Assembly: GCA_947631685.1 (NCBI GenBank)
Contig: CANRMI010000004.1
Location: 23,439 to 87,438 of the forward strand
From: an uncultured Lachnospiraceae bacterium
Lineage (GTDB): Bacteria > Bacillota > Clostridia > Lachnospirales > Lachnospiraceae
Length of the DNA stretch: 64,000 bases
Direction of reading: 5' to 3'
Each line of letters opens with the position of its first letter. Position 1 is the stretch's first letter. The position numbers and the translations under genes are program-made. Under the pieces are notes generated by a model. It did not search any database. It saw only the letters and a list, made by a program, of their open reading frames with translations, and was not told where the DNA came from. Positions 3,153-10,539 of the stretch are shown piece by piece.

Positions 3153-3226
3153 GGACCTTTAGCTCAGTTGGTTAGAGCAACCGGCTCATAACCGGTCGGT
3201 CCTGGGTTCGAGTCCCCGAAGGTCCA
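3153..3226 (+). tRNA. tRNA with CAT anticodon, most likely tRNA-Ile2 (lysidine-modified)
   Basis: Full cloverleaf; acceptor GGACCTT/AAGGTCC, anticodon arm ACCGG-CTCATAA-CCGGT; GGACCTTTAGCTCAGTTGGTTAGAGC start matches Firmicutes Ile2 as I recall it. Confidence 0.93.
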
Positions 3227-3325
3227 CTACAGCACGAACGGTCGAACACCGTTCAAATCCGCAGCATTGCGGTATGGAAAAGTGAGGTTGGCATCATACT
3301 TGATACATCGGGGTATGATGCCGGG

Positions 3326-3445
3326 GTGGTGGATCCAAATGGCTATCCTTTAACATATGCGGGAATCCAGCAATGGGTGAAAGATAATTATGATGTTGAA
3401 ATAGGTAATTCAAGTATTACCGCAGTAAAAAACAAATGCAATATT
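3326..3445 (+). pseudogene. Fragment resembling the small C-terminal domain of RlmD/RumA-type methyltransferases, often left at Firmicutes element ends
   Basis: TYAGIQQWVKDNYDVEIGNSSITAVKNKCNI fits the remembered pattern TY..IK.YV.E..GLKVS...IA.VK.KCGI. Confidence 0.35.
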
Positions 3446-3600
3446 AGGAATTGTATAACATTTATTAAGCAGCAGACAGAGCTATGTAACAGACATGGCT
3501 CTGTTTTTTGTACCCTTTTGGGGACATAAAAGGAATTTTGACAACTGAATATGGAACCCGTCAACTCCGGAAAATCATTCAAAGAAAGGAAATGGTGACT

Positions 3601-3954
3601 ATGCGGAAAAAGAACAATACCAATTATACCATGATGAAAGGAACTATGACAATCGAAACCTTTATGGATCTGGTGAGAGATGCGCTGAAAGACCAGCTGA
3701 AAGGCTGTACGGTGGAGGTACAAGAAACAAACAAGAACAACGGAGGGATCTTTCACGGGATCCGTATCACAGAGCCGGGGAGCAGCATTGCGCCCTGCAT
3801 CTATCTGGACAAGGATTACAAAGATTATCAGGAGGGAAAGGATTTAATACAACACAGCGTCAGAGCGTATAGAGAACAGTCTATGCGCTTTATTTTTTTG
3901 AAAAAGAGCAGAGAATATGGTAGAAACCAAAAACGAGCAACAGCCCCAAAGTAA
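3601..3954 (+). pseudogene. N-terminal fragment of a DUF5688-like protein
   Basis: FMDLVRDALK..VEVQETNKNNGGIFHGIRITEPGSSIAPCIYLD..Y.DY..G matches the family N-terminus; similarity stops after about 80 aa. Confidence 0.55.
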
Positions 3955-4124
3955 TCTATATGTTGAGCATTATTAGGAATGCTGTCGGCTATAATGAAGT
4001 AGAAAGCGCCCGTGTTTACGGTGGATAATTATTTGCGAATTAGATAAGATATTAACTTGAAACGTCTGTATTTTGTGAGTATAATATCTGCATAAACATG
4101 AATGAAAAGGAAGAGAAACAATGA

Positions 4125-4490
4125 AGAAGCGACTTAACAACAGAAGACCCTGAAAGCGCAAAGGAGTGGGCTGTAATCAACGGACGGGAAGGAAGTAATA
4201 TTTGCAATCAGTGTGAGATTGACTTTGAAGGGTTGAACATTCTTCATCTTAATCAATTTTGTAAGGAAGCAAACAACAACAGCAACAAGTACGATGATAT
4301 TATTTTAGATTGGGCAGCGGATATTTATGTAATGCTGCAATGGAAATATAATTTCCCGTCAGCTTCTATCAGCCTTGCAATCCCTGCTGAAGAAATGATA
4401 AAGGCGTATTATCCATTTCATGAAACATCGTATAATAACGCTTGTGAAAAGCTCTATCATAAATATCTTGAAGAGGGTGATACTGAATGA
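4125..4490 (+). pseudogene. Chimeric remnant: DUF3990-like (ADP-ribosyltransferase clan) internal fragment fused in frame to the C-terminus of its usual partner gene
   Basis: Frame open from 4125 with no start codon before the TTG at 4233: TEDPESAKEWAVINGREG..N.CEIDFEGLNILHLN, then DWAADIYVMLQWKY...PAEEMIKAYYPFHE. Confidence 0.45.
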
Positions 4491-4918
4491 AAATAAACTC
4501 TTTTCGTAACGAACATTTCTTTCTTAGTAACTTTTATGAAGCTCCTGTCACTTATGACGGATTGACATATCAGAATAATGAGGCAGCGTTTCAGGCTCAG
4601 AAGTGTGCAGACCCCAAAGAGCGTGATGCGTTCACTGCTATGAATCCTTCGGAAGCCAAAAGAGCAGGGCGCAGAGTTCAGCTCAGAAAAGATTGGGAAC
4701 AGATAAAGGTCTCGGTCATGGCTGATATTGTCAAGGCAAAGTTTGAACAGAACAGTGACCTTGCAGACAGACTTCTTGCAACAGGTGACGCATATCTTGA
4801 AGAAGGCAACGATTGGGGAGACCGTATCTGGGGAACTGTAAATGGAAAGGGCGCGAACTGTCTTGGAATTATCCTTATGGACGTTAGAGAAAAAATAAGC
4901 GCAGAGAAAGAACATTGA
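4487..4918 (+). CDS. NADAR family protein (YbiA/DUF1768-like N-glycosidase / ADP-ribosylhydrolase)
   Basis: FLSNFYEAPV, EAAFQAQK, AKRAGR..LRKDWE, KFEQN, LLATG, LEEGNDWGDRIWG, NCLGIILM. Confidence 0.92.
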   Translation: MKINSFRNEHFFLSNFYEAPVTYDGLTYQNNEAAFQAQKCADPKERDAFTAMNPSEAKRAGRRVQLRKDWEQIKVSVMADIVKAKFEQNSDLADRLLATGDAYLEEGNDWGDRIWGTVNGKGANCLGIILMDVREKISAEKEH

Positions 4919-5008
4919 TAAGGTCATTGATGATAAGCAGGAGTTATCTTATGATGAAACTCTTGAGATGATCGGAAAAGCATAGAAAAAAATTTTTTAA
5001 AAATAGGG

Positions 5009-5037
5009 TTGACAATGAAATTCATTCCTGATATAGT
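5009..5037 (+). promoter_or_regulatory. Near-consensus sigma-A promoter with extended -10
   Basis: TTGACA-17 nt-TATAGT with TG at -15/-14 and an AT-rich UP-like tract upstream. Confidence 0.8.
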
Positions 5038-5136
5038 GTCTTTTGCTGATGACGAGAGCGGAGTGCTCAAAAGGGCTAAGCTCTGTGTCCGGAATAGAAT
5101 AAACTCTGTATCAGGAACATAATTTATAAGAAGATC

Positions 5137-5194
5137 AGAGGCGACTTGAATCATAGGGAAATTATACCCATTTGGTTCAGGCCGCCTCTTTTTT
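5137..5194 (+). terminator. Long hairpin plus T tract inside the clpP-like leader (attenuator or sRNA terminator)
   Basis: AGAGGCG(5137-43)/CGCCTCT(5183-89), with CTTGAATCA/TGGTTCAGG and GGG/CCC inner pairing, followed by a T run. Confidence 0.7.
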
Positions 5195-5360
5195 GCGTGC
5201 CCGGAAAAGTCATTCACATTGTACTTTGAAAACTTCATAGCCGTCCGAAGAAATATCCCCTCCGGGGAAGCAGCTCATTCAGCTTGCCAAGGGGTGAAAA
5301 CGCTGCTGGCGCCGCGCAGGGCCCGGGGGCAGGAGGATATTCGGGACAACGGCAGAAAAA

Positions 5361-5426
5361 CAGTAAAAAAGCAGTAAAAGCAATAAAAGCAGTAAGGAGC
5401 AGTAAGGAGCAGTAAAAGAGCAGTAA
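5361..5426 (+). repeat. Seven short direct repeats CA(G/A)TAA with about 10 nt period just upstream of the clpP RBS
   Basis: Copies start at 5361, 5372, 5381, 5390, 5400, 5410 and 5421. Confidence 0.85.
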
Positions 5427-5449
5427 AAAATAAGAAGGGAGGAGTCAAT

Positions 5450-6040
5450 ATGTCATTTGTAGACGAAGCAAGAATCATCAAGGAATCATCCCGGGGGTAT
5501 GAGTTGATCCCCATCCGGGACGAAATGCTCTCTCACCGGGAGGTGGAACTGACCGGGGAGGTAGACGCGGATTCTGTAAACTCCCTGATTCGGGAGCTGC
5601 GTTACCTGCAGCGGCAGGATCCGGAGGGTGAGATCACCATGTACATCAACAGCCCCGGAGGCGGAGTGGACAGCGGCCTGGCTCTGTATGATGTGATGCA
5701 GGCCATCAGCTGCCCCATCCGGACGGTCTGCGTGGGGCTGGCAGCCTCCATGGCAGCTTTACTCTTTATTTCAGGCGACCGGAGAGATATGCTGCCGCAC
5801 AGCCGTCTGATGATCCATGATCCGCTGATCGTCCAAACCGGAGGCAGCGCCCTTCGCCTGAAGGCGGTCAGCGATGACCTGATGGAGACCCGGCAGATCA
5901 CCGCGAGGGTAATCGCGGAGCACTCAGGCAAGAGCCTGGAGGAGATCCTGGAGAAGACCGCCACCGACAGCTTTTTCCGGGCAGAAGAGGCTGTGGCCTT
6001 TGGCCTGGCAGACAACATTATCACCAGTTTTGAAAAATAG
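5450..6040 (+). CDS. Accessory ClpP-like serine protease subunit
   Basis: MYINSPGGGVDSGLALYD, GLAASMAA (Ser), LMIHDP (His), TDSFF..EEAVAFGLAD (Asp); catalytic triad intact. Confidence 0.92.
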   Translation: MSFVDEARIIKESSRGYELIPIRDEMLSHREVELTGEVDADSVNSLIRELRYLQRQDPEGEITMYINSPGGGVDSGLALYDVMQAISCPIRTVCVGLAASMAALLFISGDRRDMLPHSRLMIHDPLIVQTGGSALRLKAVSDDLMETRQITARVIAEHSGKSLEEILEKTATDSFFRAEEAVAFGLADNIITSFEK

Positions 6041-6057
6041 TAAAGGAGGAATGGAAA

Positions 6058-7368
6058 ATGTTTGAGAATGTGAAATCCAACCGCATCCTGGCGAAGGGAG
6101 TTACCGCCAGCAATGACACCTGGGTTACGGGGATCAACAACAACGACCTGCTGGTCGGTCCTTCCGGCGGGGGCAAGACACGGGGCTATGTAATCCCCAA
6201 CATCCTTCACGCTCAGGACAGCCTCATCGTCACGGATACGAAAGGAAATCTGTACCGCTGGTACGGAGATTATCTGAAGGGACTGGGTTACACGGTGATG
6301 CACCTGGACTTCACCGATATGTTAAACACTTCCTGGGGCTACAATCCCCTGGACTATGTCCGGGAGTGCCAGGATCCGGAAACGAACCGGGATGGGGACT
6401 ACTATAACGAGCAGGATGTAAAGAAAGTGGCCAGGGCTATCTGTCCCTGCCAGAATGCCAAGGAACCCTATTGGGATCAGGCTGCGCAGATGTATCTGGA
6501 AGCCATCCTCCTCTATGTCCTGAATGAGCTTCCGGATGAGCAGCACGATCTGTACGAAGCATACACCTTTTTGACAAAAATGGGGTCGAGTGGTCTGGAG
6601 AACATCATCGAGGAATATTTGGCAGTTCATCCCCAGAGCGCCTTTGCCCGGAAGATCGGAATGATCAGACAGAACGAAAAGGCAGAAAAGATGGATGCCA
6701 GCATCAAGGGGATTCTGGCGCAGCATCTGGATGTGGTGGCATACCCCGGAATTCGGAGGATGTTCCGTATGGAGCAGCAGGCGGATCTGGAGGCCTTCCT
6801 TAAAGGAAAGACGGCTCTGTTCCTTTCCGTCAGCGATTCCGACCGCAGCCAGGATGCCTTGGTAAATCTCTTTTACACCCAGGCGCTGCAGTACCTCATG
6901 ACTGCGGCAGACCGGCAGCCGGACAGCCGCATGCCAATCCCGGTGCGCTTCATCCTGGATGATTTCAGTACCAACACCCTGATCCCGGATTTTGACAAGA
7001 TCATTTCGGTCATCCGTTCCCGGGAGATTTACGTCAGCCTTGTTGTCCAGAGCTTTTCCCAGCTGGAAGGTCTCTACGGCAAGGCCGGAGCCCAGACCAT
7101 TATCAACAACTGCGACACCTGCTTGTATCTGGGCGGAACGGATGTCAATACAGCCCAGTACTTTGCCGAAAAGCTGAACCGGCAGCTCTCCACGGTGCTG
7201 GATCTTCCCCTGAACAGTATGTTTCTGTTCACCCGGGGCGAAAAGCCCCGTCAGGTCCAGAAGTACGAACTGGATCAGGATAATACCTATCGTAAATTGA
7301 TGAACTCCCGTAAAAGGGAGGCGAAACCCGTTGACGCTGGAGAAAGGAGCGAGATATATGAGCGATAA
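6058..7368 (+). CDS. VirD4/TraG-like ATPase without N-terminal membrane anchor
   Basis: Walker A GPSGGGKT, IVTDTKG, YNPLDY, YWDQAA, Walker B-like FILDDF, SVIRSREI..SLVVQSFSQL..LYG, NNCDT.LYLGG; Walker A at residue ~35, no hydrophobic helices. Confidence 0.85.
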   Translation: MFENVKSNRILAKGVTASNDTWVTGINNNDLLVGPSGGGKTRGYVIPNILHAQDSLIVTDTKGNLYRWYGDYLKGLGYTVMHLDFTDMLNTSWGYNPLDYVRECQDPETNRDGDYYNEQDVKKVARAICPCQNAKEPYWDQAAQMYLEAILLYVLNELPDEQHDLYEAYTFLTKMGSSGLENIIEEYLAVHPQSAFARKIGMIRQNEKAEKMDASIKGILAQHLDVVAYPGIRRMFRMEQQADLEAFLKGKTALFLSVSDSDRSQDALVNLFYTQALQYLMTAADRQPDSRMPIPVRFILDDFSTNTLIPDFDKIISVIRSREIYVSLVVQSFSQLEGLYGKAGAQTIINNCDTCLYLGGTDVNTAQYFAEKLNRQLSTVLDLPLNSMFLFTRGEKPRQVQKYELDQDNTYRKLMNSRKREAKPVDAGERSEIYER

Positions 7369-8497
7369 TGAAAGAGTACGTCTGACACTGGAGGAACGCC
7401 TGGCGCTGGCCGCGCGGTCCAAATCGGCCACACCCGAGGCCGCCGCCGCAATGGTGCGGCGGTTCTATGAGCTCCCCGCAGGCTGCATCTTTTGCGGAAC
7501 GTCCGATGTAGATGCCATGAACGAATTGACCGGCGAGTTTTGGGACGTTCCCAGGGTGGATGTGGACAGCTACCGGGGGTTCTGCCCTTCTTTCCTGATG
7601 GCGATGGAGTATGACAATGATCTCGTCCTGGGATCCTGGCGGCCGGAGGATTTTGATCCTGACCGGCTTCTGCTGAGCGTCCGAGTCAACAATGCCCTGG
7701 TCCTTCTGGGGGAAATATTGCTGGATCAGGTCATGGGCCGCCAAAGGCACAAGGAGATCTACCATTCTCTTCGTATGACACTGCGGCAGTATCTGGACGC
7801 CCTGACGGGACCTGATTTTCTGCGGAGCGAGTCTGAGACAGAGTGGTTCACGGCCTGGCGGGAGAAAATCCTGGAGAAAATGGACGGAGATCAATCTCTG
7901 GCGGAAGCGCTGGCCGGCGTTTTGCGGCGGTATGTGAGCGCATGGGAACCTTTTGATCGTCTGAACCATATCCTGCACTGCCTGGGCGGTCTGGCTTTTC
8001 ATCTGGAGAAGGAAGGGACGAGGTACGATGTCGACCGCTGCTCGGACGAGGATGCTGCCCTGGTGCTGACGACTTCCCGGACGGAGAAAGCGAAAGCAGC
8101 CTGGCGCTTTCGGAGAGCTCTCCGCAGGTTCGGTATCGGAAAGAACCGGCGGGAGCTGCCCAAAGCTGACCAGGAATGTCAGGATCCCCGGGAGTACCTT
8201 CTGAAGCTGGCTCTGGAATACGCTCCGGATCTGCCGGATCCGGGCAGTGAGATGGAAGCGAAAACCCTGCGGAGCCAGATCTTCATCCCTCATTGGAGCC
8301 GCGATCTTGACGCATTGGGGAGGCTGTTGGAAAATGCGCCTTTTCCGGAGTTTGAACCTTTCCTGAAGGGATGCCCGGACCGGGACCGGCTGGCTGAAGC
8401 CATACGGGAGATCAATGCGGCGGTGATGGATCTGTATATGCTGTGGGTGGAACCCTATCTGTGGCTTGAGGGGACAGCCGCGCATGGAAACAAGTAA
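7358..8497 (+). CDS. Hypothetical protein, 379 aa, translationally coupled to the VirD4-like gene
   Basis: AAGGAG RBS at 7344-49, 11 bp overlap with the upstream ORF; no recognised motif. Confidence 0.75.
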   Translation: MSDNERVRLTLEERLALAARSKSATPEAAAAMVRRFYELPAGCIFCGTSDVDAMNELTGEFWDVPRVDVDSYRGFCPSFLMAMEYDNDLVLGSWRPEDFDPDRLLLSVRVNNALVLLGEILLDQVMGRQRHKEIYHSLRMTLRQYLDALTGPDFLRSESETEWFTAWREKILEKMDGDQSLAEALAGVLRRYVSAWEPFDRLNHILHCLGGLAFHLEKEGTRYDVDRCSDEDAALVLTTSRTEKAKAAWRFRRALRRFGIGKNRRELPKADQECQDPREYLLKLALEYAPDLPDPGSEMEAKTLRSQIFIPHWSRDLDALGRLLENAPFPEFEPFLKGCPDRDRLAEAIREINAAVMDLYMLWVEPYLWLEGTAAHGNK

Positions 8498-8501
8498 AAG
8501 A

Positions 8502-8533
8502 ATTGGCAAAACACGAACGGATTGGCAAAACAC
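8502..8533 (+). repeat. Perfect 13 bp direct repeat ATTGGCAAAACAC x2
   Basis: 8502-8514 and 8521-8533, directly upstream of the -35 box of the ncRNA/RT promoter. Confidence 0.9.
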
Positions 8534-8541
8534 AAAGTGTC

Positions 8542-8570
8542 TTGTCCCGCATGGAAAAACATGATATAAT
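8542..8570 (+). promoter_or_regulatory. Sigma-A promoter for the ncRNA-RT unit
   Basis: TTGTCC-17 nt-TATAAT with extended TG; predicted start near 8577. Confidence 0.8.
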
Positions 8571-8576
8571 AACATT

Positions 8577-8765
8577 ACCTTATCCGATAGGCGGTAAGGG
8601 CGGTATTTTTCATCATTTACGATGAATCTGCTTTCTGATTTATGTACGATTTATCAGAACTTTATGCAAACAGGACAATAGTGTTCATGTACCTGCCTGC
8701 CAGTTTAGGGAAGTTGTCCCCCGTGCTGGCAGGCATGATGCATCTATAGGGGGATTTTAGGAAGA
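8577..8765 (+). ncRNA. Putative RT-associated structured ncRNA (~190 nt)
   Basis: Five consecutive hairpins: 8578-99, 8609-26, 8633-59, 8673-86, and 8694-8735 (perfect 10 bp TGCCTGCCAG/CTGGCAGGCA), lying between a promoter and the RT start. Confidence 0.65.
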
Positions 8766-10175
8766 ATGGAAAGGCAGAAAAGATATAACCGGTGCAGTAA
8801 GGACGGCGCTTGTGCCGAATGTGCGCAGAACGATCAGTGCGGCGCATGGGTGTCTTTTGTGGACAAGCACGGCACGCAGAAAGGCTATGCGCATTTTGAC
8901 AGGCGGGTATCCCTGGAAATGGATTCCGTTCGGGATTATGTCATGGACAGGGAAAAGGTGGCTGCACACGGTTTCTATCCGTTTATACACTTTGAAAAGA
9001 AAAATTCGCGCTACGGCAGGAAAGGCCCGAAAAAACCAAGGGAACTGTATTACTGTTCCCACATGGACCGCTGCATTTACCAGAGATATGCGTTTCTGCT
9101 GAACTATTTATACAACATCAGAGCAAAGGAAGAAGGGATCGACCGGGTGGCGACTGCCTACCGGAACAATCTGGGAAAGAACAACATCGACTTCGCGAAA
9201 GAGGTGTTCGACGCCATCCGGGGGATGGGGAAATGCCTTGTAATCGTGGGGGATTTCACGGACTTTTTTAACAGGCTGGAGCACCGCTACCTGAAGCAGA
9301 GGCTGTGTGAACTCCTTGGCGTGGAGCGCCTGCCGGAGGATTATTTTGCCGTATTCCAGAATATTACCCGCTTCGCAGGCTGGGACTGGGAAGACATTGT
9401 AGAGGCGGCGGGAGAATCCATAAACGAGAAGGGCATCAAAAAGAAGCTTAACCGGAAAGAAACGGTCCTCACAAGGCAGCAGTTTCTGGATAATAAGAAA
9501 TATATCCGGAAGAACACATCGGGAATAGGTATCCCGCAGGGATCTCCGATCAGTGCCGTACTGGCGAACATATACATGATGCGGTTTGACCGGACGCTGC
9601 AGGAGTATGTGTCAGGACAGGGCGGGATCTACAGACGCTATTCTGACGATTTTCTGATCGCGGTTCCCATTCGTGGAGAGGGCGAGGCTAAGAAGCATAT
9701 CGGGCGTATCTTTTCTTACATCCATGAGATGGATGGACTGATCGAACTGCAGGAGGAAAAGACTTCCCTGTATCTGTTTGAACAGGGGCGGATACGTTCG
9801 TACCCGTCGAAAGATCCGGCCTTTATCGATTACCTTGGGTTCTGGTTTGACGGTGAGAATATACGGATACGGCCCCGCTCCATTACAAAGTATTATTACA
9901 GGATGCGGAGGAAAGCGCGGACGGTCGGGCGAAGCAGCGGTCTGTCTCTGCATGGGAGGCATATCTCGTCTAAGAACCTGTACCAGATCTATTCCCATAA
10001 TGATAAGAAGCGGACGTTTATCGACTATGCCAAAAAGGCCAGACATATGATGGATCTGCGCGATCCGGAAACAGACGCGGTGATAAAAAGGCACAAGCAG
10101 AAGATCGCGCAGGCGGTGAAAGCCGGGATAACGGCTAAAAAACATTTGGTGAAAGAGGTGAATGAAGATGGCTGA
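8766..10175 (+). CDS. Reverse transcriptase, DRT2/UG2-like defence-associated class
   Basis: GYAHFD, HGFYPF, RELYYCSHMDRCIY, NNIDFAK..FD, GDFTDFF, GIPQGSPISAVLANIYM, YRRYSDD (9639-9650), YLGFWFDG, SITKYYYRM; collinear with KpnDRT2 motifs as I recall them. Confidence 0.85.
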   Translation: MERQKRYNRCSKDGACAECAQNDQCGAWVSFVDKHGTQKGYAHFDRRVSLEMDSVRDYVMDREKVAAHGFYPFIHFEKKNSRYGRKGPKKPRELYYCSHMDRCIYQRYAFLLNYLYNIRAKEEGIDRVATAYRNNLGKNNIDFAKEVFDAIRGMGKCLVIVGDFTDFFNRLEHRYLKQRLCELLGVERLPEDYFAVFQNITRFAGWDWEDIVEAAGESINEKGIKKKLNRKETVLTRQQFLDNKKYIRKNTSGIGIPQGSPISAVLANIYMMRFDRTLQEYVSGQGGIYRRYSDDFLIAVPIRGEGEAKKHIGRIFSYIHEMDGLIELQEEKTSLYLFEQGRIRSYPSKDPAFIDYLGFWFDGENIRIRPRSITKYYYRMRRKARTVGRSSGLSLHGRHISSKNLYQIYSHNDKKRTFIDYAKKARHMMDLRDPETDAVIKRHKQKIAQAVKAGITAKKHLVKEVNEDG

Positions 10176-10206
10176 TATTTATGTACTATGAATAACCGGC
10201 CGGTAC

Positions 10207-10235: not shown

Positions 10236-10255
10236 TAGAAAGTAAAACAGGATAT

Positions 10256-10329
10256 GGCCTAGTGGCTCAGTTGGTTAGAGCGCCGCCCTGTCACGGCGGA
10301 GGTCGTCGGTTCGAGTCCGATCTGGGTCG
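10256..10329 (+). tRNA. tRNA-Asp(GTC)
   Basis: Cloverleaf; anticodon loop CTGTCAC; GGTTCGAGTCC T-arm. Confidence 0.95.
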
Positions 10330-10355
10330 TAAAGCGGGTGTACCGCATCCGCTCA

Positions 10356-10428
10356 GGGGTCTTAGCTCAGCTGGGAGAGCATCTGCCTTACAAGCAGAGG
10401 GTCATAGGTTCGAGCCCTATAGGCCCCA
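10356..10428 (+). tRNA. tRNA-Val(TAC)
   Basis: Cloverleaf; acceptor GGGGTCT/AGGCCCC; anticodon loop CTTACAA. Confidence 0.95.
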
Positions 10429-10455
10429 TAATTTTTCTAAATGATCTGCGTACCG

Positions 10456-10539
10456 GCTGGTGTGGCGGAATAGGCAGACGCAAGGGACTTAAAATCCCTC
10501 GATGGCAACATCGTGCCGGTTCAAGTCCGGCCACCAGCA
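10456..10539 (+). tRNA. tRNA-Leu(TAA)
   Basis: Cloverleaf with long variable arm GATGGCAACATC; anticodon loop CTTAAAA. Confidence 0.95.

Follow-up and report, generated by a model that had tools for sequence, protein, structure and literature searches.

A clade of Lachnospiraceae DRT2 reverse transcriptases with a truncated, neo-less template and a possible non-coding cDNA product

DRT2 reverse transcriptases (RTs) are known for making neo, a toxic gene that is absent from the genome. We analysed a DRT2 locus within a 64,000-nucleotide (nt) stretch of DNA from an uncultured Lachnospiraceae bacterium (assembly GCA_947631685.1, contig CANRMI010000004.1), hereafter the window, whose numbering is used for all coordinates of this locus. 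Positions 8542-10175 carry, in this order, a promoter, an RNA of ~190 nt that folds into five hairpins, and the gene of a DRT2 RT of 469 amino acids (aa). Comparison with related loci shows that the RNA has lost the part of its template that encodes neo, and we propose tentatively, giving the idea slightly less than an even chance, that this DRT2 lineage dropped the protein-coding neo and acts through a non-coding complementary DNA (cDNA), made of tandem repeats or hairpins, from a template of ~59 nt. That a neo-less DRT2 still copies its 59-nt template into non-coding, probably tandem, cDNA seems to us an even bet. In the closest known system, that of Klebsiella pneumoniae (KpnDRT2), the template comprises bases 29-148 of a 280-base RNA, synthesis is primed by the RNA's own 3' end, and defence requires each of the -35 box, -10 box, ribosome-binding site, ATG and open frame of neo (PMC12039810, PMC11100668). 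The repeat units of canonical DRT2 systems are all divisible by three (Wilkinson et al., PMC12039810).

The open reading frame (ORF) at 8766-10175 is, judging from profile and structure matches, a DRT2 (UG2) RT, the family to which a preliminary description made from the DNA letters had assigned it. It matched the PADLOC Drt2 model at 8e-136, the next family following at 2.9e-18, and its NCBIfam Drt2 score (389.6 bits) lay 0.4 under the cut-off of 390. Pfam returned RVT_1 only and retron models matched weakly, while the solved KpnDRT2 RT (9c0i and others) aligned across residues 38-431 with E = 1.3e-59. All RT motifs are intact, including the YSDD (residues 292-295, nt 9639-9650), which is invariant in 13 relatives. 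The protein carries an N-terminal extension of ~35 aa, absent from the KpnDRT2 RT, with four invariant cysteines (C10, C16, C19 and C25; Cys-x5-Cys-x2-Cys-x5-Cys). This Cys4 motif looks like a zinc knuckle and was found only in the clade of the window, in its nearest neo-bearing relatives and in two further loci (L010 and L035; L numbers designate the loci of our comparison). A protein search with the window RT gave 4063 homologues, and we compared 80 genomic loci plus 15 further contigs for the closest proteins.

The RNA upstream of this RT is structured and conserved. The fold of 8570-8770 has a predicted energy of -61.5 kcal/mol, which none of 200 shuffled sequences equalled (z = -2.74); all five hairpins appeared where the preliminary description had drawn them, and in 10 related short RNAs pairing is kept in 99.1% of the cells of the five-hairpin structure. 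Rfam searches, whether cut at the gathering threshold or by E-value, matched no family to this RNA. At the 5' end, ~21 of 28 bases of the handle match the handle of the Vibrio splendidus DRT2 RNA (CTTTACGCGATAGGCGTGAAGGGC), and the handle is also similar in sequence to that of Klebsiella, whose RNA begins with GCCCTAAACAAAGGTTTAGGGGTATTGTACAGGTTGTCAA (Tang et al. Table S1). The Klebsiella hairpin is followed by GGTATTGT-ACA-GGT-TGTCAA and the window hairpin by GCGGTATTTTTCATCA, with GGTATT at 8602-8607. The resemblance to the two ends of the Klebsiella RNA that had been noticed beforehand (hairpin then GGTATT, and a 3' stem) is thus genuine, and the Klebsiella RNA start described there agrees with Table S1. 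Between the two ends, hairpin A has a nearly invariant stem and a variable loop, and hairpin B shows compensatory changes at four pairs in the 10 related short RNAs, including UA to CG and UA to AU; one locus (L120) has CCGGT/ACCGG in place of CTGAT/ATCAG, and the hairpin B loop is free to vary in both length and sequence. A terminator scan flagged the 5' handle hairpin (8578-8599), which we read as a false positive.

The preliminary description had suggested a covariance model of the upstream regions as a check. Such a model of the 3' domain found a single match in the window (8651-8763, 124 bits) and matches directly 5' of the RT in 80 Firmicutes DRT2 loci, with RT identities down to 35-40%. 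Among the 74 distinct sequences analysed, the long hairpin of this domain (the tower, with a perfect 10-bp stem 8694-8703/8726-8735, TGCCTGCCAG/CTGGCAGGCA) showed compensatory changes at 16 of its 17 pairs with 94.8% of cells paired, and the short hairpin at 8673-8686 showed changes on both sides at five of five pairs with 79% paired. In controls with slid partners only 36-49% of cells in the entire structure were paired; the alignment was fitted to the model and is therefore biased toward the structure, but the margin over the controls is large. The apical tower stem (GGG 8708-8710 with CCC 8720-8722) is 99.5% paired; at its inner pair, 43 sequences have GC and 28 have AU.

The nearest relatives outside the clade of the window have RNAs of ~275 nt and retain neo. 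The RTs of these long-type loci are 60-63% identical to that of the window (L005-L008 and L012), or 46% in L010. Repeat units were set by the canonical DRT2 geometry, 6 nt beyond the -35 box and 11 nt before the -10 box (cDNAs of Tang et al. Table S1), and measured 123, 126, 123 and 123 nt in L005-L008, 123 nt in L012 and 162 nt in L010, all multiples of three. Each unit has exactly one stop-free antisense frame, continuous across the repeat junction and preceded by GGAAAGGAG and an ATG. At the locus tested (L008), the concatemer creates a 12/12 junction promoter, TTGACA-17-TATAAT. In a broader scan the majority of distant Firmicutes DRT2 loci showed the same arrangement, with units of 87-162 nt. 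The predicted Neo repeats of Firmicutes are 29-54 aa long and mostly end in LTTI or LTEM, those of the nearest relatives being hydrophobic and 41-42 aa long, and the template-border motif is NAU (CAU, GAU or UAU) as opposed to the proteobacterial ACA. Anaerostipes butyraticus JCM 17466 (L006), together with L005, L007, L008 and L012, shares the Cys4 N-terminus with the window RT and has a 5' handle and 3' domain near-identical to those of the window RNA; these relatives keep the 123-126-nt template, the TTGACA-17-TATAAT junction promoter, GGAAAGGAG and the ATG, whereas the window has lost all of these.

The short type comprises the window and L001/L100-L104, L106, L009, L002/L107/L108, L109/L112, L111 and L120; RT identity to the window is 65-92%. 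Their ~190-nt RNAs share the 5' handle of the long type and a 3' domain that hardly varies, and only two hairpins lie between these parts. Aligned with MAFFT, short and long RNAs differ by one gap of ~68 nt. The gap has the former -35 region (TGTCAAGTCTG) on one side and the former start codon (CATGA in the sense strand) on the other, and hairpin A now spans the site where these two regions meet. The neo signals have gone too: the former ATG is ATC or ATT (ATC in the window), the former ribosome-binding site GGAAAGGAG has become AGAAAGCAG or AGACAGCGT, a variable loop stands in place of the -10 box, and the old TGTCAA is now TCATCA, within hairpin A. The missing block explains the short RNA, whose length the preliminary description had put at about a third below that of the Klebsiella RNA. 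The predicted window unit, 59 nt, is no multiple of three, and the anchor-to-anchor lengths of the short type (63, 65, 64, 51, 66, 65, 65 and 63 nt) cover every residue modulo 3. On the antisense strand, each of the three frames of the window is interrupted by stops across 8575-8757, also as first described. The alignments show the deletion and the loss of the neo signals in the short type. The window has the RT and the RNA scaffold of a DRT2 system and none of the sequence features specific to neo, and the earlier suggestion that its output is not canonical neo held for promoter, ribosome-binding site, ATG, open frame and unit length modulo 3 alike. A permissive neo scan did match the window (TGGCAA ... 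ATGATA, 81 nt), at a place upstream of the predicted transcription start and overlapping the sense promoter, and we discarded the match as spurious; similar off-position matches occurred in L009, L103 and L106.

Neighbour-joining groups the short-type RTs in a single clade (94 of 100 bootstrap replicates). Long-type loci are the closest neighbours of this clade, and the branches beyond them (L010, then most of the more distant loci) are neo-bearing as well, with L035 not resolved. Since the short clade is monophyletic and both its nearest and its outer branches bear neo, the simplest history is a single deletion in the common ancestor of a Lachnospiraceae sub-clade. Within the short clade, the ratio of non-synonymous to synonymous substitution rates (dN/dS) of the RT is 0.08-0.17, with synonymous divergence (dS) saturated between sub-clades; this is as low as in the sole estimable pair of the long type (0.079), the other five pairs being dS-saturated. 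While the RTs diverged to 65% identity, the 5' handle and the 3' domain stayed nearly constant, and the loops drift in both sequence and length. These substitution patterns show that both the RT and the RNA scaffold of the short clade are under purifying selection, and the pattern is, by this reading, that of a working RNA-protein complex and not that of a pseudogene. Because neo was deleted while the enzyme and its RNA scaffold stayed under strong selection, the short type has probably adopted a different way of working.

We propose the following mechanism. The promoter would drive a single transcript with the ~190-nt structured RNA followed by the RT coding region. The 5' handle and the 3' scaffold (short hairpin and tower), the enzyme-holding parts of canonical DRT2, have been retained after the deletion, and the RT would still bind this RNA, prime near 8662 and copy the two-hairpin template 8604-8662. 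As the UAU at 8604-8606 recurs at 8663-8665, the enzyme would probably jump back, and tandem repeats of ~59 nt are the probable product, with a predicted junction ...GAAAAATA/AAGTTCTG... in the minus-strand DNA. This cDNA would be non-coding and, if the system is still directed against phages, the effector would be the DNA product or its synthesis and not a Neo protein.

Several observations weigh against this proposal. Two independent assemblies (L003 and L119) retain an intact RT but showed nothing of the RNA, even when the filters of the model were switched off. As their downstream genes match those of the RNA-bearing L107, RNA loss does occur in the short clade, which fits a system on its way out. 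The template-closing basal stem needed for precise jumping in KpnDRT2 was not predicted in the short family, and one variant (L111) happens to have a 54-nt unit with an open frame on either strand. In the KpnDRT2 system, concatemers of cDNA do not protect against T2 or T4 when neo is not transcribed (PMC12039810), so that a non-coding product would need a new mode of action. The two RNA-less loci (L003 1-9356 and L119 1-6548) make up a sub-lineage of the short clade with 73% RT identity, found in an Acetatifactor muris metagenome-assembled genome, with a low dN/dS and an RT start that abuts the upstream gene.

The loss of RNA in this sub-lineage, the disappearance of every neo expression signal and the position of the window copy among what appear to be remnants of a conjugative element could together suggest a decaying relic, a module that after the deletion no longer defends its host and drifts toward loss or is kept for some unrelated reason. 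We consider this unlikely. All RNA-bearing members of the clade have the short template even though their RTs have diverged to 65% identity with saturated dS and low dN/dS, the scaffold is nearly invariant, hairpin B is maintained by compensatory changes, and the YSDD and all other RT motifs are intact; conservation over such a time is not expected of a dead system.

The template may alternatively be copied only once, with no jumping, in the manner of a retron, leaving a hairpin-rich single-stranded DNA on the 3' end of the RNA as sensor or effector. Priming from the RNA 3' end is what KpnDRT2 does (PMC12039810), a basal stem bracketing the template is not predicted, and the template consists of two stable hairpins with conserved stems and free loops, all of which would suit such a product. 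However, a microhomology of 3-5 nt is kept at the borders in every short variant (TAT/TAT, TATGC/TATGC or TCTTT/TCTTT), both borders changing together, and no conserved effector gene lies beside the RT, unlike in retrons. This makes single copying rather improbable, and repeated copying of the 59-nt template remains our preferred reading.

A neo-like endless ORF might persist through other borders, the other strand or a non-AUG start. At least one sense frame is open across the template in every short variant, and the concatemers of L111 and L106 are open with the predicted borders. Yet the open sense frame differs from variant to variant across indels, in line with unit lengths in all residues modulo 3, and ~20 open sense codons in such T-rich sequence would occur by chance with a probability of ~60%, as estimated from base composition. 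On the antisense strand, L120 resembles the window in having stops in all three frames, and L001 has no open frame under any of 432 combinations of borders. Eight-copy concatemers built with the predicted borders have longest antisense stop-free stretches of 15-24 aa in six of the seven variants (for the window, 15 aa in antisense and 34 aa in sense). A search for promoters scoring 9/12 or better found none on either strand of the window concatemer, and none in the antisense concatemers of six of the seven short variants, and the former start codon is now ATC or ATT. Persistence of such a gene is therefore very improbable. That the region is a small sense-strand protein gene and no RNA at all is scarcely credible, even though ORFs of 66-104 aa have been called over it in L101, L103, L104, L109 and L112, since the called ORFs differ in frame and extent among close relatives, the window frame is cut at 8679 and 8758, the variation sits in paired positions with compensatory changes and not in third codon positions, and DRT2 RNAs that were defined by experiment are homologous to the region. 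These called ORFs (L101 2784-2984, L103 2784-2984, L104 1088-1288, L109 51-344 and L112 29-343) are likely misannotations, as is an N-terminal RT extension translated from part of the RNA in one protein (P0060).

Table 1. Features of the DRT2 locus, in window coordinates.
Feature	Position	Strand	Basis
Predicted sigma-70-type promoter of the RNA-RT transcript, TTGTCC-17-TATAAT, TG-extended -10	8542-8570	+	Scan
5' handle hairpin	8578-8599	+	98.8% pairing over eight pairs in the short family
Predicted truncated template, 59 nt	8604-8662	+	Borders UAU 8604-8606 and UAU 8663-8665; homology to neo-bearing relatives
Hairpin A, 6 bp, TTCATC/GATGAA	8609-8626	+	Alignment of short and long RNAs
Hairpin B, 7 bp	8633-8659	+	Homologous to the -10-bearing template hairpin of neo-bearing relatives
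Short 3'-domain hairpin (buttress-like)	8673-8686	+	Covariation
Long 3'-domain hairpin (tower-like)	8687-8743	+	Covariation
GGGGGA, candidate Shine-Dalgarno sequence of the RT	8749-8754	+	Position in relatives
DRT2 (UG2) RT, 469 aa	8766-10175	+	ORF, profile and structure matches
Cys4 motif, RT residues 10-25	8793-8840	+	Comparison of relatives

The promoter that had been pointed out beforehand was recovered by the scan and places the predicted transcription start at ~8577. Promoter-like matches in the region numbered 4 against 2.5 expected, a single match being within chance, but an equivalent promoter lies at an equal distance from the RNA in L001, L106, L009, L107, L109, L111 and L120. Immediately 5' of the -35 box are two tandem copies of a 19-nt sequence (8497-8534, AAAGAATTGGCAAAACACG / AACGGATTGGCAAAACACA), and in L001 another tandem repeat (AAAAGCAAAG x2) occupies the equivalent position; such repeats may serve to bind a regulator. 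The loop of hairpin B (8638-8650, ATTTATGTACGAT) recurs with one mismatch at 10177-10189, just past the RT stop. This is probably a coincidence, about 18 such matches being estimated by chance in the 7.7-kb stretch.

One proposal of the preliminary description found no support. The C-run of the tower loop, TCCCCC at 8717-8722, is complementary to the GGGGGA at 8749-8754 and had been thought to pair with it alternatively. We rejected a pseudoknot of this kind as the preferred pairing: the purine run showed no covariation with the tower loop, whereas the local GGG/CCC stem covaries and, as CCC 8720-8722 pairs with GGG 8708-8710, three of the five C of TCCCCC are engaged locally. A pseudoknot, or the occlusion of the ribosome-binding site by this pairing, is possible and unsupported. 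GGGGGA itself is probably the Shine-Dalgarno sequence of the RT, to judge from the purine runs (GGGGGGAG, GGGAGA or AAGGAG) found 4-12 nt ahead of the RT start in relatives. RNAalifold paired the same hexamer with the linker between hairpins A and B (8627-8632). The single compensatory change in this pairing (C-G in three sequences, A-U in five, with two mismatches) is too little to judge it by; it may be a relic of an old anti-Shine-Dalgarno-like CUCCU or a contact between the template and the 3' end. In many distant homologues the tower loop (8712-8722 in the window) reads UCCUCC, the same as the anti-Shine-Dalgarno of 16S rRNA, and the ribosome-binding site of the RT lies ~30 nt further downstream, which hints at a control of RT translation.

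The DRT2 module lies inside a stretch of ~7 kb between a tRNA-Met (3153-3227) and a tRNA-Asp (10255), with housekeeping genes on either side; genes for tRNA-Asp, tRNA-Val and tRNA-Leu (10255-10539) follow the RT. Between the tRNA-Met and the module (3388-8497), we found a DUF5688 fragment, a NADAR protein, a ClpP-like/prohead protease, a 436-aa VirD4/CD1115-family coupling protein and an unassigned 388-aa ORF. Together they look like what is left of a conjugative or phage-like element. A search for attachment-site-like direct repeats bounding the ~7-kb island found none. Gene neighbours vary from one short-type locus to another at all loci, no conserved partner gene adjoining the RT was found among the loci of relatives, and the 388-aa ORF has no homologue among the DRT2 loci fetched for comparison, all in keeping with the initial view of a YSDD-bearing RT with no partner ORF. 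Scans with the RT for short-type relatives gave none in viral contigs and none in metagenome contigs, where all relatives were at most 47% identical, and the part of Tang et al. Table S1 that was examined contains no close RT homologue.

We found no description of a neo-less DRT2 clade in the literature, a search that did not cover one 2026 preprint mentioning DRT2 (10.64898/2026.09.22.753630). The two clades compared here amount to a natural experiment: close to each other, they share RT, handle and scaffold, one with a complete neo and the other with neo deleted. Their comparison bears on whether a DRT2 enzyme is useful without Neo and on what its DNA product does. It also carries a warning for annotation, as a Drt2 match need not mean a neo gene and gene callers place false ORFs of 66-104 aa on the RNA.

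Among known systems, the locus most resembles KpnDRT2 (Tang et al. 2024, PMC11100668; Wilkinson et al. 2024, PMC12039810), with which it shares a homologous RT, a single-gene operon, an upstream co-oriented RNA, a 5' hairpin followed by GGTATT, a 3' hairpin scaffold and a template between short repeated motifs. It differs in the length of the RNA (~190 against 280 nt) and of the template (~59 against 120 nt), in the motif at the template border (UAU instead of ACA) and in lacking the split promoter, ribosome-binding site, ATG and open frame of KpnDRT2. Retrons likewise combine an RT with a structured RNA in cis, of which a hairpin-rich segment is copied into DNA, but they have a1/a2 repeats and an effector gene, whereas the window locus has neither such repeats nor a conserved effector. 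If our inference is right, the product would resemble those of DRT10 (UG17) and DRT9 (class 2 UG RTs), which make repetitive non-coding DNA from a short RNA template (PMC12632851, PMC12483538). Both belong to RT families other than that of the window and are protein-primed, a SLATT effector is required by DRT10, and the product of DRT9 is poly-dA. Nothing of this kind is seen at the window locus. A DRT2 that makes non-coding cDNA would, if it exists, be a natural intermediate between the gene-synthesising DRT2 systems and the repeat-DNA-making DRT9 and DRT10.

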